Shown: in pieces, positions 22,410 through 60,708 of the stretch | How positions within the stretch are numbered: the first letter of the stretch is position 1 | Layout: each line of letters begins with the position of its first letter | DNA from: Blastocatellia bacterium | GTDB lineage: Bacteria; Acidobacteriota; Blastocatellia; UBA7656 | Direction of reading: 5' to 3' | DNA: 64,000 bases | NCBI GenBank assembly: GCA_963765495.1 | Contig: CAVXWP010000001.1 | Location: 448,001-512,000, forward strand | The notes under the pieces: model-generated | What the model was told of the DNA's origin: nothing | The model's database searches: none | What the model saw: only the letters and a program-made list of their open reading frames with translations | Position numbers and translations under genes: made by a program

Positions 22410-23375
22410 ATGCCGGATCTAAAAAAGCTATATGTTGGGCTGGATGTTGGGCGCACCATCCGAGGGGCGCTTGTCGATGAAGAGGGTCACATACTAAAAC
22501 GATGTCAAATAGTAACCGAGGTGAGCAACCCGCAGGTTTTTATTGATCAGCTTGTAGATGTTATCAACGGGCTGCGCGCCTCTGTAGAAACCGAAGGCAA
22601 GGTCTCTGCCGTGGGCATAGGATGGGCGGGCATGGTGAACCAGAAAGCTCAACGAGTCGAGGTTATGCCGAACCTTGTGGATATGTCGTCTTTTGCTCTA
22701 CACGAGGAACTAGAAAAGGCCACAAAACTGCCTGTCGTATTCGATAATGATGCCAACGTAGCTGCCTACGGCGAATGGCGATGTGGCGCGGCCCGAGGGT
22801 CGAGCGATGTCTTTTATGTCACTATGGGCACAGGCATAGGCGCGGCCTTGATTCTGGGGGGGCAACTCCAGAGAGGCACGCGCGGTTTTGCGGGCGAATT
22901 CGGACACTTCAAAATAGAGATGGATGGATTGGAATGCGCCTGCGGCTCAACGGGCTGTCTTGAGACGCTGGCCTCCGGCCCCAACATCGTACGGAGGGTG
23001 CGGGAACAGCTCTTCAGCGATCCTTCATATTCGATCTCGCATCTTGCTAAAGACATGGAAGGCACGCTGGTATGCGAACGGGTTTTTCAGGCCGCGAGCG
23101 AAGAAGATGAACTTGCGCGGTTAGTCCTCGAAGAGACCGGAAAGATACTGGGCACCGCTATAGCGAGCGTGATCAATCTGTTGAATGTGGAAGCAGTGGT
23201 TCTGGGCGGCGGCGTGATGGCCGAGGGAAAGTTGTTGCTTGAGCCTGTCAGAGAAGAGACTAAGAAACGTACCATGGCCCCCGCCTTTGAAAGCTGTCGT
23301 ATAATTGCTGCCGAACTGGGACAGGACGCGGGAATAATCGGCGCTGCGCTGCTGGCTTGTGATCTGCTGCAATGA
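22410..23375 (+). CDS. ROK-family sugar kinase (glucokinase-like)
   Basis: GLDVG, NDANVAAYGE, GTGIG, GEFGH, CACGSTGCLE. Confidence 0.92.
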   Translation: MPDLKKLYVGLDVGRTIRGALVDEEGHILKRCQIVTEVSNPQVFIDQLVDVINGLRASVETEGKVSAVGIGWAGMVNQKAQRVEVMPNLVDMSSFALHEELEKATKLPVVFDNDANVAAYGEWRCGAARGSSDVFYVTMGTGIGAALILGGQLQRGTRGFAGEFGHFKIEMDGLECACGSTGCLETLASGPNIVRRVREQLFSDPSYSISHLAKDMEGTLVCERVFQAASEEDELARLVLEETGKILGTAIASVINLLNVEAVVLGGGVMAEGKLLLEPVREETKKRTMAPAFESCRIIAAELGQDAGIIGAALLACDLLQ

Positions 23376-23497
23376 TGCGCGATCCGTGATCCGTGACCGG
23401 AGAATCGGGTTTTTGGCAGGATTTACAAGATTTACAATACTTGGGACATAGAGTTAAAGAATCCCGTTAATCCGGTTAAAGATTTTTTCACGGATCA
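23373..23497. repeat. Nested repeat: CGTGATC heptamer arms enclosing a degenerate family B element
   Basis: GATCCGTGATCCGTGA ... TCACGGATCA around GGCAGGATTTACAAGATTTACAA...AATCCCGTTAATCCGGTT (about 23415-23478). Confidence 0.6.
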
Positions 23498-23512
23498 ACT
23501 TCATTCGTTGTT

Positions 23513-23941
23513 TTATTCTTTTCGCCTTATCTCCCTCAGACTGGCCTTATATTGATTGAAGGCGAACAGGTATTTATAAGTCCAGCTAAAGGCAATTTCG
23601 ACGGCGCGACGTGCTGTCTGGTTGGCCGCTATTATTCCTGCCGGCCCTTGCCGGAGAGCAGTCAGGATCGATCCCATTATTGATTGATAGCGTTTGTTGC
23701 TGCTCTCTTTTGCCACCTTCTCAATCAATTGCAAATCCGACTCGTTAAGTTCGCCTCCAATTGGCGAGCCGGTTACATCGCTTACAACCTGCATCCTTCC
23801 CGCCATTACATTTATCTGGTTGACAGGCAATTTTTCAATGAATTTACGGATTTCGGTTTCAGGGACCAGATAACCCTCGGAATAAGTAACAAATTCGGAT
23901 TTTGTTTTTGTGCCAGTATCCCTTTTTTCTGGTATACTCAT
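23513..23941 (-). CDS. Hypothetical protein, 142 aa (orphan of the AT-richer cassette)
   Basis: ATG 23941 preceded by GGAG; no recognisable family. Confidence 0.6.
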   Translation of the reverse strand: MSIPEKRDTGTKTKSEFVTYSEGYLVPETEIRKFIEKLPVNQINVMAGRMQVVSDVTGSPIGGELNESDLQLIEKVAKESSNKRYQSIMGSILTALRQGPAGIIAANQTARRAVEIAFSWTYKYLFAFNQYKASLREIRRKE

Positions 23942-24065
23942 AGCCGTTCTCCGGTATGCAAGCGTGTTTTTGGACAAACCAATCCCTTTACACGGCTGTG
24001 TGCAGTTGAGCCCGGGTGGGTCATCGGGCAACGATGGCCCACCTCAAGATATAGGTTTTGAAGGT

Positions 24066-25118
24066 TTACCGGTTTTTAATCCAAAGACATGAAGGTGGGG
24101 CGCGAGGTTGGATACTCTGACGCATCATTTCAAGAATGCGCCGGTTTACCTGATCGTCGGCGATTGCCACACACGGGGCAATCGTAAAAACTGATATTTG
24201 AAGATTAAATTTATCGCAGGCAGGCCAGGCAAAAACCAGGACCCTCACCGGCTTCAGGCTGGGCAGAGTTTGAGGCTGTGGCGAGGGAGCGATTTCAGGC
24301 GCGCGATTGAGAGCGATAAAGGAAGAAGAAGCGGCTTGCTGTTTAGCTGAGATCTCCTCACGAGTTTCAGCCCATTCGGGATAAGCAGCGGCAAAGGGAG
24401 ACCGCAGAGCGATTTCGCTAGCGGCCTGCGCTTCTGTGATGCGGCCGACTTCTGCAAGATCGACCGCAATCGCGTTATGGTAAACATAGAAATATAAAGG
24501 ATGCTGCTTGCTGACCAGCTGCATAAGAGGCGAAAGGTTTTCGAGATAGGCTATTGCTCCAAGATGATCGCCCTCTATGCTCTGGTGAAGCACTATATCC
24601 AAATGGGCCATCAGTATAGGAAGCCAATTTTGCCCATTTTTGGTTGATGCGATCTTTAGTGCTTCGAGATAACACCGCGATGACTCATCTACCTGACCTT
24701 GTTCGTAGTGTATTACTCCCAGCGATTGAATCGCTCGCGCCCTGTAGGCCAACGGCCCATTCTCTGCAACTTTTTCAAGCAGGAGTCGCGCTTCGCTTCT
24801 TTGCCCGCTCCGCTTGACGGCAAGAGCGTGATAGTACAAACCCGTCTGCCGCGCCGCTTCAATCGGCAGATTCATCAGCACCTGGCTTGCATTTTCAAGC
24901 GTTTCTAAATCACGCAGGCTGTAAGCATGTTCAGCGAATCGGGTAAATTTATCAGCAGTTTCATTGAATAATTGATGTGAGTTAAAAGTGTGAGCCAGTC
25001 GGCTCAAAATGGCGTGTTGAAACAATCCACCCCGGCCAGCCAAGCTTTCCAGGCCGGCAAATCCCAATTTGGAGGAAGTATTCGTGAGAAAACGACTTGT
25101 ATTTGCGGTTTTTTGCAT
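24066..25118 (-). CDS. TPR-like repeat protein with C-terminal PRAPP motif
   Basis: About four TPR-like helical pairs (e.g. RAIQSLGVIHYEQGQVDESSRCYLEALKI), Pro-rich linker, ends QPRAPPSCLWIKNR. Confidence 0.75.
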   Translation of the reverse strand: MQKTANTSRFLTNTSSKLGFAGLESLAGRGGLFQHAILSRLAHTFNSHQLFNETADKFTRFAEHAYSLRDLETLENASQVLMNLPIEAARQTGLYYHALAVKRSGQRSEARLLLEKVAENGPLAYRARAIQSLGVIHYEQGQVDESSRCYLEALKIASTKNGQNWLPILMAHLDIVLHQSIEGDHLGAIAYLENLSPLMQLVSKQHPLYFYVYHNAIAVDLAEVGRITEAQAASEIALRSPFAAAYPEWAETREEISAKQQAASSSFIALNRAPEIAPSPQPQTLPSLKPVRVLVFAWPACDKFNLQISVFTIAPCVAIADDQVNRRILEMMRQSIQPRAPPSCLWIKNR

Positions 25119-25413
25119 CCTTGCTCTTCCGCTTCTGTTTTCGCCTTCTCAATTCGATAAACAGAACATCTCGACTCCATTCACCACTGTTGCATTAGCA
25201 GGCCACACCCTTGTTGGCGGCTACTGCGACTGTGGAACTATCGGTTGCATTTGTGGTCCAGGTGAAAATTCTACAAACATCAAAACGACTGATCTTTCCG
25301 ACACAAATTCGGATGCGAGGTCCAGCAATCAAACCAACACCGCTGGGGCCGATCTGGCATCAGGGATGCTGGCATTTGCTTCCGCTCTTCTCCTGTGGTT
25401 TAGAATGCGATAA
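25084..25413 (+). CDS. Small exported Cys-rich protein (CxCx4CxC) with C-terminal hydrophobic/basic anchor
   Basis: GGAGGA RBS at 25071 then GTG; signal peptide MRKRLVFAVFCILALPLLF; YCDCGTIGCICGPGE; ends GMLAFASALLLWFRMR. Confidence 0.7.
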   Translation: MRKRLVFAVFCILALPLLFSPSQFDKQNISTPFTTVALAGHTLVGGYCDCGTIGCICGPGENSTNIKTTDLSDTNSDARSSNQTNTAGADLASGMLAFASALLLWFRMR

Positions 25414-25850
25414 AACTCTCAGCATCTCAAGTCCGAATTGAATCAACACCGTTAGATTCGCCGCCCCGACAACTTTGGCGGCTTAGGATGAGTGTGGCCT
25501 CGTGACCTGCGCATTGTATCATAAAAATTCCAGGATGAAACGAATAATCTAGCTTACATATACAAAATATTGAAGACATTTGAATGAATGAATTGCATCG
25601 TAAATATTCGGTCATATTGCCATTTGCCGGACAGATTGGATGCCGAAATGGAGACTTTTGGGCACTCCACCTGACTGCGCGGCAAATCCAGGGACAAGGC
25701 ATATTCTTGCCTGAATCAAGACGGTCGTCCGGGGGGCAATTCGGTGAGCCACTATAAAATGGATTCATTGCGACTGCCCCTATACTCTTGAAAAAGCTCT
25801 GCATTTGCGGTATAAGCAGTGGTTGCAAATCCCAGATCAAGTTCAGTTAT

Positions 25851-27668
25851 ATGCTTATGCGCAAAATTCAGCTTTTAATCATTACCCTCGCAATTTGCCT
25901 ACCCTCCCTCACAATGCAAATACCCGTCTCTGCTTCAAAGCATAAGCGAAACCCTTCCGCTTATGCTCCCGGAGAAGTAATAGTCAAGCTCAAGCAAGGA
26001 ATCGATTCCTTCACCTTGGCCGATAAGGAGCGGCACAATCGAGCGCTCGCCCGCTCGATTGGAGAGACAAACGGGAGGCTGCGGGATGAAGATATTGTGC
26101 CGATGGCCGTCCGTCCGAATCAAGATGCGAATCGAGATGCGAATCGAGATGCGAATCTTGATCGGATAGACGAGATCATATCGCGGCGCGGGCTGGATCG
26201 CACCTTTGTACTGCATTTTGATCGGAACGCCGATATTGATTCAATAATCGAGCGGCTTCGCGCCGATGACCGCGTAGAGTACGCAACGCCGAATTACCGT
26301 GTAACTCCGGGCTCGCTGCGACCGGATGACCCCGCCTTTATAAGGCAATGGGCGCTTTTGAACCTCGGTGCATTCGATAATCGAATCACAAAGGCTCAGG
26401 CTGATATCAAGGCGCTTGAGGCGTGGGACATAACTACGGGTAACCCCGATCTTATAGTGGCCATTAGCGACTCGGGCGTCGACATAGATCATCCTGATCT
26501 CGCGCCGAACATTTATACCAATCCCAAAGAAATCCCCGGCAACGGAATAGATGACGACAATAATGGATATATTGATGACGTGCATGGCGCAAATGTGGTG
26601 ACTCGCGACGGCGATGTCAGGGATGTATATGGCCACGGGACGTTCATGGCCGGCATAATTGCCGCGCGTATGAATAATAATGTCGGCATAAGCGGCGTTG
26701 CGCAGATAAAGATATTGCCGGTCAATTTTTTCACTACAGAGGATGACGGATTCCCTGTGGCGACTATGGCTGATGCGGCGCGCTCGCTGCTCTATTCGAT
26801 AGCCGCCGGAGCCTCGATCATCAATGCAAGCTGGAGCTCGGAACTCTACACGGCAGGCGAAGAAGCGGTGCCGCCGGAAGACGCTCAGGCGCTAAAGGAT
26901 GCGGTCCTTGCAACCAATGATGCGGGAGTGCTGCTTGTGTGCATAGCAGGCAATAAAGGTTACGATAACGACAAGAGCCTGCTTTACCCGGGCGCTTACA
27001 AGCTGCCTAATCAAATAGTTGTGGCCGCCACAGACTACAACGACAAGATATGGGCAGACTACTTCGGAAACTTCCTTATAACAGGCTTCGGCCAGACGAG
27101 CGTGCATCTGGCTGCGCCCGGTGTTTCGATACTCACAACCTCGGCACGCGGATCGTGTCTGCTCTGTTCGCTTTCGGATGACCCTGACGACTGGTACGCG
27201 CTCGTAGACGGAACATCTGCCTCCGCCGCATTCGTAACGGGTGTCGCGGCGCTGGTAAAATCGAAGTACCCCGAAGACCTCGCACCCGTCATAAAGAGCC
27301 GGATACTCGGCGGTGTTGATCAACTCGACACTCTCTATGACCGCGAAGGACACCCCTACGTAGCAACCGCAGGCCGTCTGAACGCATTCGGCGCGCTGAT
27401 GTTTCAGCCCGCAATAACGCCGCCCGTGCTTACCCGCGTGAAGTACAAAAAGGGATCAGGAAAGCTGCTCTTATATGGAGAGGCTCTACAGGAAGGCGTC
27501 GTTGCCGTTGTAGGAAACATCGTCTATCCGATAAAGCCTAAGAGCCCTGACCTGTCGGTCGTGCTGGCTCGCGTGCCAAACGATAAATTTCCTGTGGGGG
27601 TCCCGGTTTCGATCACTCTGCGCAATCCTGACGGCGGAATCAGCCAGATCGTGACCTTTACGCGCTGA
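25851..27668 (+). CDS. S8 (subtilisin-family) serine peptidase, secreted
   Basis: Triad motifs DSGVD, HGTFMAG, GTSAS; GNGIDDDNNGYIDD loop; signal peptide and propeptide. Confidence 0.92.
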   Translation: MLMRKIQLLIITLAICLPSLTMQIPVSASKHKRNPSAYAPGEVIVKLKQGIDSFTLADKERHNRALARSIGETNGRLRDEDIVPMAVRPNQDANRDANRDANLDRIDEIISRRGLDRTFVLHFDRNADIDSIIERLRADDRVEYATPNYRVTPGSLRPDDPAFIRQWALLNLGAFDNRITKAQADIKALEAWDITTGNPDLIVAISDSGVDIDHPDLAPNIYTNPKEIPGNGIDDDNNGYIDDVHGANVVTRDGDVRDVYGHGTFMAGIIAARMNNNVGISGVAQIKILPVNFFTTEDDGFPVATMADAARSLLYSIAAGASIINASWSSELYTAGEEAVPPEDAQALKDAVLATNDAGVLLVCIAGNKGYDNDKSLLYPGAYKLPNQIVVAATDYNDKIWADYFGNFLITGFGQTSVHLAAPGVSILTTSARGSCLLCSLSDDPDDWYALVDGTSASAAFVTGVAALVKSKYPEDLAPVIKSRILGGVDQLDTLYDREGHPYVATAGRLNAFGALMFQPAITPPVLTRVKYKKGSGKLLLYGEALQEGVVAVVGNIVYPIKPKSPDLSVVLARVPNDKFPVGVPVSITLRNPDGGISQIVTFTR

Positions 27669-57815: not shown

Positions 57816-60122
57816 TCAAAAATGGAATCGCACCGAACCGGACAGGAAACGCGGCGGCGAAAACTGCACCGGAGTAAATTCGCTCTCTTTCGCTATTCGA
57901 TAAACCCTGTCGGAGGCGTTCTCCACATTGAATTGCAGGCTCACTTTGTTGCGTTCCTTGCGGAAAAGGTCGATCCCGAAATAGAAGTTTGACACGAAAT
58001 GATCGGGCAATCGCACAAGCGACGGCTCGCCTAAAGAGTTCGGCAACTCGGCCGGGGTGCCGCTCCCGTATTCGAAGGCGGCGCTGGCCCAGAATCCGCT
58101 TCTGTGCTCGCGCCAGGTCAGCCCCGCTACCGCCGTGTGAATCTGATCGAAGGCCGCCGGGTTGCGCTCGCCCGGCTCTACGTTTTCAACCGTGAATCCG
58201 CCCGCGACCGGGCCTGTCTGGAAGGCGCGTTGTGCCGTGTAGCTGAAATAGCCCGAGAGCCCGAGAGGCTTGATTTCAGCAAGTTGAGAGGAGAGTTCTA
58301 TGCCGTAGGCTTTACCGCGCGCAAAAGAAGTGGGCGCAAAGATGCGAACGTTTGCAAGTTCTGAGGTCTCGAAGGTGTTTTTGTCCGAGCGCCAGTAGGC
58401 GGTCATTCGAATCACCAGTTTATCGCGCACGGATCGGTTCACCCCTGCTTCAAAGTGATTGCTGCGAGCTATCCTCGGCGGCTGTCCTTCAAATCCGAGC
58501 GCCGCCGAAAGCAACAGGTCTTCAATCGGCGGCGGCGAAAAAAAGCGGTTATAGGCGAAGTGCAAAACGGTTCGCCCGCCGTCAAGCGCATAGGCGAGAT
58601 TGATTCGAGGGCTTAAGGCGTGGCCGCTCGTCACAAGGCTGTATTGATCGTAACGCACTCCTAAATTGGCAGTGAGGTTTTTCAAAAGCGTTATCTTGTC
58701 TTGAAAATAAAGGCTGGCCTGGCCTCCGGTCTTGCGCCCGCGAAAATTAAAAGGCTCGATCTCTTCTTCCCCTGCGTCGCGCGGGTCGAGGAAAAAATCT
58801 TCTCTCAATCTGAGTTGCACAAGGTCCAGCCCCATCTTTATCGAGTGACGCGAGCCTCGATAAATCGAATAATCGCTTTTAGCACCAACCGTCACATCCT
58901 GGCGCAGCCCGCCTGCCTGAATCGAGAAGGGGTCGGTTGTAGGAAGCAGCCGCGCGCTCGCAAACCGTTCGTAGAGCGATGATGTGAGGACCGAAGAGGT
59001 CGAAAAAATATGGGTCCAGGAAAGCGCGGCGGTCTGCTCGCGATTGCGCGCAAAGAAATCTCGCCCGCGCAATTCATCCTCGGTAGTATTGGGCAGTTCG
59101 AGATTCGTCCCGTCTCCGCTCAGCAATAACTTGAAGTTGTCGGCGGCGCGCGGCCTGTAATCGAATTGCGTGAACAAGTGCGATCCTTTGCCCCTGTCGT
59201 GAAAACGGCGCTCTTCGGGCGTGTTCAGGAAACGGTCGCTTTGAATCCCCTGGGCGTACAGAAAATAGCCGAATCTCTCAGTATGTCCGCCGTAATCCAC
59301 CTCGGCCGTGTCTCGTAGATAGTTGCCTGCGCTCAGGCTCAGGCTGCCGTGATCATTTGCATCGAATCCGTTGCGAGTCACTATGTCGAGTATGCCGCCG
59401 AATCGGTTTCCGAACTCAGCCGGGAAACCTCCTGTGATGACATTGACCGATTGTATTATGCCGGGCGCAAGCCCCGGCGTGAATAACTGGTGCGGGTTGT
59501 CAAAAAAGGAGACGCCGTTGATAAAAGTATTTAGCGAAAGCTCATTGCCGCGCAGATGAACAAGGTTGTCGTGACCCGCAACGGCGCTCGAAACAAACGG
59601 TGTAATGATGTCTGTCAATTGGGCGCGCCTCGCCTCGGGCAGAATATCTATCTGCTCGCGGTCGAGAGCGGTCGCGGTCGCGGCTTCCGTCTCGTCAATC
59701 AGCCTGTCTCGGGCCTGGACAGCCACCTGTTCCTGAATTGATGCGGCGGGCGTTAATTGAAAATCTATCTCCTGTAAAGCGCGCGGCCCAAGCGTTATCG
59801 TGGTCTTCTCGGTATAGAATGTATCGGCCGATGCGCTCACGCTATAACGCCCGGGGCTGAGGTTCGCAAACGAAAATCGCCCCTCATTATCGGTCGTCAA
59901 TGTCAGATCAAGGTCCAACAAATCGCTTTCAAGTTTCACAGATGCCGATGCGAGTATATGCCCGGTGTTTTTGGCAGTAACTGTTCCGCTTATTCTCTGC
60001 TGTGCCAGGACCGGCGAACCGAGCAAGAGCAGCCATAACGCAATAGTTCCGATTCTTTTGCCCGCGCTGCCGCGCGAATGCCGGTTGAGGGGAATGCTCA
60101 TATCAAATAAATAGTTCTTCAT
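57816..60122 (-). CDS. TonB-dependent receptor (probable metal uptake)
   Basis: GGAGG RBS before ATG 60122; signal peptide; plug (TGGFPAEFGNRFGGILDI); terminal Phe. Confidence 0.9.
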   Translation of the reverse strand: MKNYLFDMSIPLNRHSRGSAGKRIGTIALWLLLLGSPVLAQQRISGTVTAKNTGHILASASVKLESDLLDLDLTLTTDNEGRFSFANLSPGRYSVSASADTFYTEKTTITLGPRALQEIDFQLTPAASIQEQVAVQARDRLIDETEAATATALDREQIDILPEARRAQLTDIITPFVSSAVAGHDNLVHLRGNELSLNTFINGVSFFDNPHQLFTPGLAPGIIQSVNVITGGFPAEFGNRFGGILDIVTRNGFDANDHGSLSLSAGNYLRDTAEVDYGGHTERFGYFLYAQGIQSDRFLNTPEERRFHDRGKGSHLFTQFDYRPRAADNFKLLLSGDGTNLELPNTTEDELRGRDFFARNREQTAALSWTHIFSTSSVLTSSLYERFASARLLPTTDPFSIQAGGLRQDVTVGAKSDYSIYRGSRHSIKMGLDLVQLRLREDFFLDPRDAGEEEIEPFNFRGRKTGGQASLYFQDKITLLKNLTANLGVRYDQYSLVTSGHALSPRINLAYALDGGRTVLHFAYNRFFSPPPIEDLLLSAALGFEGQPPRIARSNHFEAGVNRSVRDKLVIRMTAYWRSDKNTFETSELANVRIFAPTSFARGKAYGIELSSQLAEIKPLGLSGYFSYTAQRAFQTGPVAGGFTVENVEPGERNPAAFDQIHTAVAGLTWREHRSGFWASAAFEYGSGTPAELPNSLGEPSLVRLPDHFVSNFYFGIDLFRKERNKVSLQFNVENASDRVYRIAKESEFTPVQFSPPRFLSGSVRFHF

Positions 60123-60270
60123 TGCCTGCACCTCCATATGCACAACTCGATCAAAAACAGAGCCGTGCAAAACTCCTACAGGTTTTATAAAAAAAGGCAG
60201 CGACGAGATGATTGCCGACCACACTTGTCGGGCAAGCGACGAGAGGCGGCAACCGGGTTGCCTGCGAGGA

Positions 60271-60708
60271 TCAAGCTATTAAATTGGCAGGAAACCGAGG
60301 AGGAGCGCGCGGAGAAGAAGGGCGCGACCATACAGAATCAGACGTGATGATAAAACGATCCGTTCTGTCGGCAGCGGAGCAGGATATGTCCAGGGCATAA
60401 CTCGCTGTGTGATCGCCATCGCGCAAATTCAAGAAGGTTGCCGCCTGTGGTGTGACACATCCTTCGGGGCAACTCGGCAGCAGACTTGTGGCGGCTATCT
60501 TATCGCGACCGTCCTCCGACTGGCCTTTTACAAAAGGCAGGTGCGGCGTGCAGCAGCAATGGCCTTCTGTGACGCAACAGGCCATCGAGCAGACATTCGG
60601 CGAAGGCAGTATCAGATCAACCGAAGCAGCGATCCATCCGAGCGCAATCGCAAGTAAGACGCACGCTGCGCGAAGCTTCAGGAATCGCTTTTGCCAGGTT
60701 GCTTTCAC
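60271..60708 (-). CDS. Cys-rich upstream leader protein with C-terminal RAPP motif (DUF2946/CruR-like)
   Basis: N-terminal hydrophobic segment, CSMACC...HCCC, CPEGC, ends SSPRAPPRFPANLIA; directly upstream of a TonB receptor. Confidence 0.75.
   Translation of the reverse strand: MKATWQKRFLKLRAACVLLAIALGWIAASVDLILPSPNVCSMACCVTEGHCCCTPHLPFVKGQSEDGRDKIAATSLLPSCPEGCVTPQAATFLNLRDGDHTASYALDISCSAADRTDRFIITSDSVWSRPSSPRAPPRFPANLIA

Follow-up and report, generated by a model that had tools for sequence, protein, structure and literature searches.

A RAPP-type tail on a cytosolic tetratricopeptide repeat protein and a covarying leader RNA: a candidate arrest-controlled regulatory cassette of soil Blastocatellia

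The DNA analysed here is a stretch of 64,000 nt from a Blastocatellia bacterium (assembly GCA_963765495.1, contig CAVXWP010000001.1, positions 448,001 to 512,000), which is referred to as the window. At approximately 23510-25521, the window contains one copy of a self-contained cassette, the borders of which were defined by the extent of nucleotide similarity to a paralogue on contig 8. The cassette comprises a gene for a 350-aa tetratricopeptide repeat (TPR) protein with an Arg-Ala-Pro-Pro (RAPP) motif near its C-terminus, a structured leader RNA, a downstream 142-aa open reading frame (ORF) designated O142, and a divergent gene for a 109-aa Cys-rich protein that is predicted to be exported (Table 1). 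An earlier note on this DNA, made from the letters alone, had located three genes in an AT-richer block, and this was borne out. The G+C content is 0.43-0.55 in 300-nt windows from 23250 to 25949, compared with mostly 0.52-0.60 in the flanks, which makes the cassette block modestly AT-richer. The gene descriptions of that note were also accurate: PRAPP is located 8 residues before the stop of the TPR protein and is preceded by a Pro-rich linker, O142 follows on the same strand after a gap of 124 nt (stop codon TAA to ATG) with its own GGAG-type ribosome-binding site (GGAGA), and the divergent protein combines a hydrophobic N-terminus with a CxCx4CxC core (YCDCGTIGCIC).

Table 1. Features of the cassette, in positions of the window.
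Feature	Positions	Strand	Basis
TPR-RAPP gene, 350 aa	24066-25118	(-)	ORF list, homologue matches
TPR-like helical repeat domain, residues 29-271	24306-25034	(-)	Pfam, AlphaFold2, Foldseek
Pro-rich disordered linker, residues 272-326, poorly conserved	24141-24305	(-)	AlphaFold2, conservation profile
Putative arrest module, residues 327-342, RRILEMMRQSIQPRAPP	24093-24140	(-)	Motif and codon conservation
RAPP codons	24104-24093	(-)	
Spacer between RAPP codons and hairpin P1; contains the last 8 codons and the stop (24066-24068)	24047-24092	(-)	
Hairpin P1 of the leader RNA	24011-24046	(-)	Per-sequence folds, covariation
Hairpin P2 of the leader RNA	23954-24003	(-)	Per-sequence folds, covariation
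Shine-Dalgarno region (GGAGA), directly 3' of P2	23942-23953	(-)	Conservation
Downstream gene O142, 142 aa, ATG 23941, MSIPEK...	23513-23941	(-)	ORF list, homologues
Divergent Cys-rich protein (predicted to be exported), 109 aa, GTG 25084 after GGAGG	25084-25413	(+)	ORF list, homologues

The TPR protein ends in ...QPRAPPSCLWIKNR, in which PRAPP corresponds to residues 338-342. Only TPR models of Pfam match this protein; the best is TPR_2, which covers one repeat at E 3.9e-6 and 27.0 bits, with a cut-off of 27. The AlphaFold2 model, which was built with 46 homologues, comprises a confident helical repeat at residues 29-271 (predicted local distance difference test, pLDDT, above 90), a disordered linker at residues 271-321 and a short low-confidence helix at residues 322-335 just before RAPP. 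Foldseek primarily returned generic TPR superhelices, with the top matches at E 2e-4 to 5e-3. A phage Rap protein is one among many of these fold matches (template modelling score 0.43, E 1.3e-3). No helix-turn-helix (HTH), phosphatase or other extra domain was found on the protein with Pfam, NCBIfam or the AlphaFold2 model. Residues 306-324 of the linker are moderately hydrophobic; the 19-residue Kyte-Doolittle window reaches 1.24 here, which is the maximum of the protein and is below the level of a membrane helix. The carriers of the RAPP tail are proteins of 340-370 aa with a complete TPR domain and are predicted to be cytosolic.

The earlier note had made its proposal depend on the conservation of PRAPP in homologues, and the motif proved to be conserved. 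Among 112 database homologues of the TPR protein, the last R.PP motif is RAPP in 90, RGPP in 7, RSPP in 6 and RQPP in 1, where it is far from the end; the other 8 have none. RAPP, RGPP or RSPP is located at most 21 residues from the stop in 102 of the 112 proteins, and exactly three residues follow the motif in 76. The second position of these near-C-terminal motifs is occupied by Ala, Gly or Ser only. In 39 distinct nucleotide sequences, Ala of RAPP is encoded by GCG (17), GCA (8), GCC (5) and GCT (1), the first Pro by CCT (15), CCG (10), CCA (9) and CCC (5), and the second Pro by CCC (19), CCT (10), CCA (5) and CCG (3). All four synonymous codons are used at each of these positions, indicating that selection acts on the RAPP tail as a peptide. 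The consensus of the module is SILDRVLxCIGPRAPP, usually followed by three more residues. Positions -12 to +3 mostly carry more than 2 bits of information, compared with less than 1.7 bits in the linker.

Arrest peptides of the RAPP/RGPP type include ApdA, ApdP, the CruR/DUF2946 leaders and a set from Streptomyces lividans (PMC12992588, PMC10951233, PMC9426467). In the first of these reports, RAPP and RGPP are described as robust arrest motifs that resist EF-P, RSPP as partly permissive, and HGPP as another stalling motif; arrest requires a variable segment adjacent on the N-terminal side, and proteomes are purged of such motifs, apart from positions close to the C-terminus in small and mainly exported proteins (PMC12992588). 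The conserved 12-residue segment and the core of the TPR tail appear to reproduce the two-module layout of these peptides. A comparable bias was observed in the source genome. RAPP was counted 16 times in a crude collection of 5797 ORFs, and 12 of these motifs are at most 25 residues from the C-terminus, compared with 5 of 48 for AAPP.

Several RAPP proteins other than the TPR family are also encoded in this genome. One of them is located in the window itself (60271-60708, minus strand). It is a Cys-rich protein of 145 aa, predicted to be exported, with the tail ...SPRAPPRFPANLIA and RAPP 8 residues before the stop. Its gene is 47 nt upstream of a gene for an 802-aa TonB-dependent receptor-like protein (57816-60224, minus strand), which is the classic layout of a CruR/DUF2946-type RAPP leader. 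Eight more RAPP proteins of 97-217 aa are encoded on contigs C1, C3, C5 and C8, with RAPP 1-14 residues before the stop. Several of these have a hydrophobic signal-like start, and two paralogue-like pairs are among them (...LSDRAPPLA, ...LSDRAPPLV).

The interval between the motif and the next gene has a fixed layout. The distance from the Arg codon of the motif to the downstream ATG is 158-167 nt in nearly all loci, even though the position of the stop codon varies from 1 to 16 codons past the motif. The interval is ordered as the spacer, hairpin P1, hairpin P2, and a Shine-Dalgarno (SD) sequence with the near-invariant start AUGAGUAUA. The best-conserved part of the initiation region is formed by the GGAGA SD and the first codons, ATGAGTATA. 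The spacer is 43-49 nt long in 36 of 37 distinct sequences. It is A/C-rich, looks unstructured and is poor in G (13.4%, compared with 26.9% in the genome), and C exceeds G in all 37 sequences. P1 is a G+C-rich hairpin of 12-17 bp that is not followed by a U-tract. P2 is a long stem of three parts: an outer part of the GCGCAC/GUGUGC type, an inner part of the CGUGUG/CACGCC type and an apical AGG/CCU.

This structure was derived from folds of the individual sequences, at first 16 of them, because the consensus obtained with default RNAalifold from MAFFT alignments was poor. In the first 16 sequences, pairing extends to 80.5% of the cells, compared with 29-44% for slid partners, and both sides have changed in 17 of the 29 pairs. 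The extension to 42 distinct matches gave 82.6% of cells, compared with 27-48% for slid partners, and 23 of 29 pairs with compensatory changes (13 of 14 in P1 and 10 of 15 in P2). The covariation score of these 42 sequences is 0.327, compared with at most 0.112 for slid partners, and this value was reached by none of 500 shuffles. A covariance model of the leader RNA matched at 91 places, which are distributed over 31 of 53 genomes from the family. An Rfam scan of 23300-25900 with E values up to 10 returned chance-level matches only and no relevant family, and the single-sequence fold of the leader in the window is not exceptional (z -1.5). In the second tandem cassette copy of one locus (L018 8327-8540, G003:C57), an insertion of approximately 200 nt was observed between the RAPP tail and the leader RNA; it forms a very stable hairpin (approximately -80 kcal/mol) and has the appearance of a small repeat element.

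The RNA and the motif occur together. Co-occurrence was scored in 80 loci from named genomes, 75 of which contain a complete TPR ORF, with O142 detected by tblastn. In the 30 TPR genes with R[AGS]PP at most 25 residues from the stop, the RNA is located downstream in all 30, the Cys-rich gene is present in 27 and O142 in 15. In the 45 TPR genes without such a motif, the corresponding counts are 1, 34 and 0. The sole RNA-bearing locus among these 45 encodes a protein that ends in ...IHGPPFRT. Viewed from the RNA, R[AGS]PP is encoded where expected at 30 of 33 matches (23 RAPP, 4 RSPP and 3 RGPP), two matches have RAPT and one is a partial duplicate. Six RAPP-less loci were also tested separately, and the leader RNA was found in none of them. 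These distributions suggest that the motif, the RNA and the regulator gene form one module; the Cys-rich gene appears to go with the TPR domain. In a quick tree, the RAPP type falls into two main clades, and approximately four label changes are needed. The association of the motif with the RNA reflects a few origins retained over deep divergence rather than many independent events.

Two groups of variants were observed in this set. In a sub-lineage with RAPT (L061 and L063 of genus g20, and L033), the tail reads ...CAPIRAPT..., which places Thr at the A-site position, and a different small protein is encoded downstream. RAPT is a natural variant that could show whether the fourth residue matters. 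The RAPP-less TPR proteins, termed type B, are longer, with an acidic helical domain at the C-terminus. This domain was considered as an O142 fusion and rejected, since it has no similarity to O142. In three of seven type-B loci (L004 = G000:C16, L028 and L032), the 3' end is abutted by a convergent ORF of 151-164 aa from one family, which may belong to the type-B cassette.

The gene behind the leader RNA is not always the same. It is O142 at 18 of the 33 RNA matches and a truncated O142 at one. Six matches are followed by AraC-type proteins of approximately 140 aa that consist of the HTH_18 domain alone (E 2e-29 to 9e-22), two by Crp-like regulators and two by other small proteins; at the remaining four, the gene is absent, short or off the contig end. 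The HTH_18 genes were found in variant loci only (L021/L035, L039, L042, L043, L048 and L058). The idea of the earlier note that the downstream gene might vary while the motif stays was therefore correct, with O142, an HTH-only AraC protein or a Crp-like protein in this place. O142 and the AraC-type proteins share the N-terminal peptide MSIKE..KR..YPxGxVVPESxIR before unrelated domains. This peptide is missing from the Crp-like proteins.

O142 is a predicted helical protein for which the searches returned no family. A longer reading of 172 aa from a TTG codon was rejected, because the homologues all start with MSI; the 142-aa reading begins at the ATG after GGAGA. AlphaFold2 predicts six helices with a mean pLDDT of 76. 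O142 has no Pfam or NCBIfam family, including no HTH_18 or HTH_AraC domain. No match in the PDB was obtained with Foldseek at E up to 0.001, the best being helical bundles similar to Csm2 (E 0.18), and a profile search of PDB sequences gave a designed helical repeat (E 3.7e-4) followed by weaker rows, with no significant relative. The ESM Atlas contained no usable match, and a word-based homology search returned the protein itself only. A profile search of a library of 1.84 billion proteins collected 124 representative clusters of the O142 family; ten longer relatives were scanned and contain no Pfam domain.

The divergent Cys-rich protein has a hydrophobic, signal-like N-terminus (2.01 in a 19-residue Kyte-Doolittle window). 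The core of the family is nearly invariant (VALAGHxxxGGWCxCGTPGCICDPGE) and is followed by a variable linker rich in Ser, Thr and Asn. The tail is again conserved and consists of D-x-(A/G)-(S/T)-G, 13-14 hydrophobic residues and R-x-R. It resembles exosortase-type sorting signals, below threshold only: VPEID-CTERM is touched by 7 of 26 family members, with a best E of 0.01, and PFE-CTERM by one (E 0.068). Head to head, the Cys-rich gene shares 35 nt (25084-25118) with the TPR gene, and this overlap recurs in most related loci. The promoter and the ribosome-binding site of each gene must therefore be located within the coding region of the other, and the 5' ends of the two mRNAs would be complementary. 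Mutual antisense or transcriptional interference between the two genes is possible. The co-occurrence of the two divergent genes, a further point raised by the earlier note, was found as head-to-head pairing in 21 of 25 regions and in 61 of the 75 complete loci. The Cys-rich gene is paired with both the RAPP and the RAPP-less types of TPR gene.

A stretch of approximately 70-125 nt after the stop of the Cys-rich gene (25396-25526, plus strand) is kept in the paralogous cassettes of contigs 8 and 9 with 74-79% identity. It is conserved even in paralogues in which the Cys-rich gene is mostly lost, and it contains a GCCGCC...GGCGGC hairpin without a U-tract. Folding of the region after the Cys-rich gene is no better than that of shuffled sequences (z 0.32).

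The cassette is a multicopy module that is confined to one family of uncultured soil Blastocatellia. Among listed sequencing runs, the DNA was traced to one soil-metagenome study, and no RNA or ribosome-profiling run was found for it. Four further places in the source genome contain a TPR gene. One of these genes is broken, O142 is present at two of the places, and at least part of the Cys-rich gene is present at three. In the interrupted paralogue (G000:C8:215619-216651), which has one TAA and halves in different frames, the RAPP tail, the leader RNA, O142 and the Cys-rich gene are intact. Of 40 relatives compared, 24 belong to the same family, and the TPR gene was found in 23 of these; a single genome gives up to 24 matches when the RAPP and RAPP-less types are counted together. 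The 16 genomes from other families of the class gave a single weak match (E 4e-4). The named records that contain relatives are all metagenome-assembled genomes of Blastocatellia or Acidobacteriota, bar one with a 'Clostridia' title. The cassette of that record (L065, CAZJQQ010000061.1, 'uncultured Clostridia bacterium') nests among Blastocatellia copies in the tree, and its title probably stems from a mistake in binning or labelling. Clustering of the ORFs in 25 regions of approximately 11 kb showed that only the TPR gene (25, by selection), the Cys-rich gene (21) and O142 (13) recur; the ROK kinase and the S8 protease next to the cassette in the window are not conserved neighbours. Paralogues within one genome are 31-66% identical by segment.

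We propose that the tail is a RAPP arrest element carried by a cytosolic TPR protein and coupled to the expression of the downstream regulator, and we assign this reading a probability of roughly 0.62. The ribosome would pause with ...RAP-tRNA in the P site and Pro-tRNA in the A site, at which point the whole TPR domain and approximately 35 linker residues would already be outside the tunnel. The length of the pause would then set the expression of the next gene through the four parts of the leader, namely the G-poor spacer of 43-49 nt, P1, the long P2, and the SD with AUGAGUAUA. The regulated product would be a small regulator, usually O142 and in some copies an HTH-only AraC protein similar to MarA/SoxS or a Crp-like protein. 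Two ways of coupling can be envisaged. The stalled ribosome may mask Rho loading at the spacer, as in tnaC, or the leader RNA may refold. The spacer is G-poor, contains more C than G and adjoins the stop codon, similar to a short rut (Rho utilization) site, which suggests a tnaC-like control. A SecM-type mechanism in which the ribosome melts the stem does not fit in a simple way, because the ribosome would remain short of P1, the SD is not part of a conserved stem and no covarying long-range helix was found.

A more specific proposal concerns the signal. The constant partner of the Cys-rich protein is the TPR domain and not the arrest module, which makes a role in TPR sensing or target function more likely for this protein. 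An attractive possibility is that the pause is modulated when a partner binds to the completed TPR domain. The TPR receptor would sense its signal while still on the ribosome: partner binding to the tethered domain would lengthen or shorten the RAPP pause and thereby set the synthesis of the small regulator through the leader RNA. Candidates for this partner are the N-terminal peptide that the regulators share and a product of the Cys-rich protein. We regard this co-translational sensing as speculative and rather unlikely in this specific form.

A number of observations weigh against an arrest element that controls the next gene. The RNA structure was partly derived from the same sequences that were scored, and the alignment (A5) was fitted to the model. 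The SD is unpaired in the consensus structure. No convincing covarying helix joins the RAPP codons, the spacer or the inter-hairpin linker to the SD/AUG; the only candidates are 4-bp helices of the GYGYG type, and the leader is so rich in GYGYG/CRCRC words that many weak alternative pairings exist. A ribosome stalled at the motif, approximately 50 nt ahead of P1, would end approximately 35 nt short of this hairpin and could not open it directly from that distance. The spacer might hold an internal promoter that uncouples the two genes. A consensus scan for a sigma-70 promoter and a terminator found nothing on the minus strand between the TPR gene and O142, such scans being weak. RAPT replaces RAPP in L061 and L063, and weakly in L033, yet the leader RNA is retained. 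No signal peptide or membrane helix was found in the TPR protein by the Kyte-Doolittle scan, so that release by the customary pulling force of Sec or YidC cannot be at work. The counts of motif and RNA are also not independent observations, given that only approximately four label changes are needed on the quick tree.

Part of this evidence suits an alternative in which the GPRAPPxxx tail acts after translation. The tail might serve as a docking peptide or a degron, or might fold back into the groove of the TPR domain; the hairpins would be the 5' untranslated region of a separately transcribed regulator, and the genes would be neighbours by descent, with no link through stalling. In favour of this alternative, TPR domains commonly bind short extended peptides. 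The spacer has the raised A/T content and the constant length that a promoter would have. The SD that is not sequestered in the consensus fold, the RNA retained by the RAPT variants and the association that is traceable to few events all agree with this alternative as well. It accounts poorly for the second position of the motif, which tolerates only Ala, Gly and Ser, the arrest-permissive set, and for the single RNA-bearing exception, which has HGPP, another stalling motif. Nor does it explain why RAPP is rare in the source genome except at C-termini, or why the motif, 1-21 residues before the stop, keeps a fixed distance from the RNA. The promoter that it calls for on the minus strand was not found by the sigma-70 scan, which is a weak test. 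We consider a purely post-translational tail to be unlikely.

A second alternative accepts the stall and dispenses with the switch. The nascent TPR domain, held at its own mRNA, would capture the regulator of the next cistron or the leader RNA in cis, which would provide a fixed stoichiometry or a default 'sequestered' state, and the shared N-terminal peptide would be the TPR ligand. In type III secretion regulation, TPR chaperones partner AraC-type activators and secreted proteins (IpgC-MxiE, SicA-InvF). This precedent, the YPxGxVVPESxIR peptide that O142 and the AraC-type proteins share despite their different domains, and the lack of an own sensor domain in HTH-only AraC proteins all agree with capture in cis. 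Simple tethering needs neither an elaborate covarying leader nor a fixed spacer, however, and the Crp-like downstream proteins are without the shared peptide. Binding between the TPR domain and the regulator is a conjecture only, and we judge capture in cis improbable. A selfish or defence-type mobile module (toxin-antitoxin-like or a contingency locus), in which the copy number results from mobility and the RAPP tail is incidental, is very improbable: the up to 24 matches per genome, many of them near contig ends, the AT-richer block, the sharp homology borders at approximately 23510 and 25521 and the unrelated neighbours at every locus would agree with it, but an inspection of 25 regions revealed neither a transposase or integrase nor terminal repeats (the PADLOC and PHROGs libraries lay outside this search), paralogues that are only 31-66% identical by segment point to old copies rather than recent transposition, and the variant outputs are ordinary transcription regulators.

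The arrest reading, if true, would extend the RAPP principle to a full-size cytosolic protein with a domain of a ligand-binding type and with transcription regulators as the output, and would suggest a new way of using ribosome stalling for gene control. The more speculative co-translational sensing, if true, would constitute a signalling circuit with up to two dozen TPR-family copies per genome in soil Acidobacteria, in which the arrest is controlled from a source that is neither Sec nor a metal. PMC12992588 restricts its survey to proteins under 300 residues, and its authors ask which forces or signals beyond Sec and YidC control arrests and whether arrests regulate downstream genes. The cassette makes directly testable which signals other than Sec/YidC pulling control RAPP arrests. 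Natural controls are available in more than 100 sequence variants, including RGPP, RSPP, RAPT and HGPP forms, and in the RAPP-less sister type. The structured RNA, a covarying motif that is new to Rfam, the multicopy nature of the cassette, the RAPP-less sister type that keeps the Cys-rich partner and the regulator identity of the variant downstream genes all go beyond the earlier note. Together they provide a first functional handle on a gene family that has expanded in uncultured soil Blastocatellia. A literature search found no paper that links arrest peptides with TPR domains or ribosome stalling with Blastocatellia, although the supplements of PMC12992588 may list RAPP proteins over 300 residues. 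Tetratricopeptide repeats are not mentioned in the searched text of the RAPP-arrest papers.

Compared with known systems, the cassette shares certain features with several and exhibits discrepancies with each. The earlier note had likened it to RRNPP signalling (Rap, NprR, PlcR, PrgX, AimR), in which respect a TPR receptor-like protein does stand beside a small exported protein and phage Rap is among the fold matches. This is a weak analogy. Neither an HTH nor a phosphatase domain is present on the TPR protein, Rap is only a generic fold match, and kinesin light chain, OGT and designed CTPR proteins match better. The exported partner is a protein of 109 aa with a four-Cys core and a C-terminal hydrophobic anchor rather than a short pro-peptide. 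The phylum differs, and the 25 regions show no conserved neighbouring genes for peptide import or processing. Membership in RRNPP was rejected on the basis of the missing effector domain and the nature of the anchored, Cys-rich partner. The output genes resemble a different group. AraC proteins of the MarA/SoxS type, which consist of the HTH only, are controlled through their synthesis, and the downstream proteins of approximately 140 aa in the variant loci are likewise the HTH_18 domain alone. In contrast to MarA and SoxS, they add the cassette-specific MSIKE...VVPESxIR peptide and are located behind RAPP and the leader; the copy in the window has O142 instead.

The layout of an upstream ORF that ends in an arrest sequence, followed by structured intergenic RNA before the downstream SD, is similar to SecM-secA, MifM-yidC2 and VemP-secDF2. 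In these systems, the stalled ribosome melts a stem that hides the SD, and pulling by Sec or YidC on a signal or membrane segment releases the arrest. In the cassette, the SD is outside any conserved stem, the hairpins are beyond the reach of the stalled ribosome and an export signal is absent. The TnaC leader of Escherichia coli has 24 residues; it responds to free tryptophan in the tunnel by blocking Rho-dependent termination ahead of tnaA (tnaC-tnaA attenuation). The cassette is similar in that the stall would occur next to the stop codon of the upstream ORF and is followed by an unstructured, G-poor stretch with more C than G that a ribosome could mask from Rho. It differs in that the spacer is only 43-49 nt long and the predicted stall takes place at elongation (RAP/P).

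The closest resemblance is to the RAPP arrest peptides. An R-(A/G/S)-P-P core is located a few residues before the stop and is preceded by a conserved N-terminal adjacent segment. The motif is just upstream of the presumed regulated gene on the same strand, with the ATG 158-167 nt after the Arg codon, and it is strongly depleted elsewhere in the proteome. Three differences were observed. The known members are small and mostly contain a signal peptide or a membrane segment, whereas the carrier here is a cytosolic TPR protein of 350 aa; the outputs here are transcription regulators or an uncharacterised helical protein; and a conserved two-hairpin leader RNA is located approximately 50 nt beyond the stall site. 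As judged from its sequence, the cassette departs from the small exported leaders of this class in its carrier protein, and with the sequence-level features of the class in place it is most like the RAPP class of regulatory arrest peptides.

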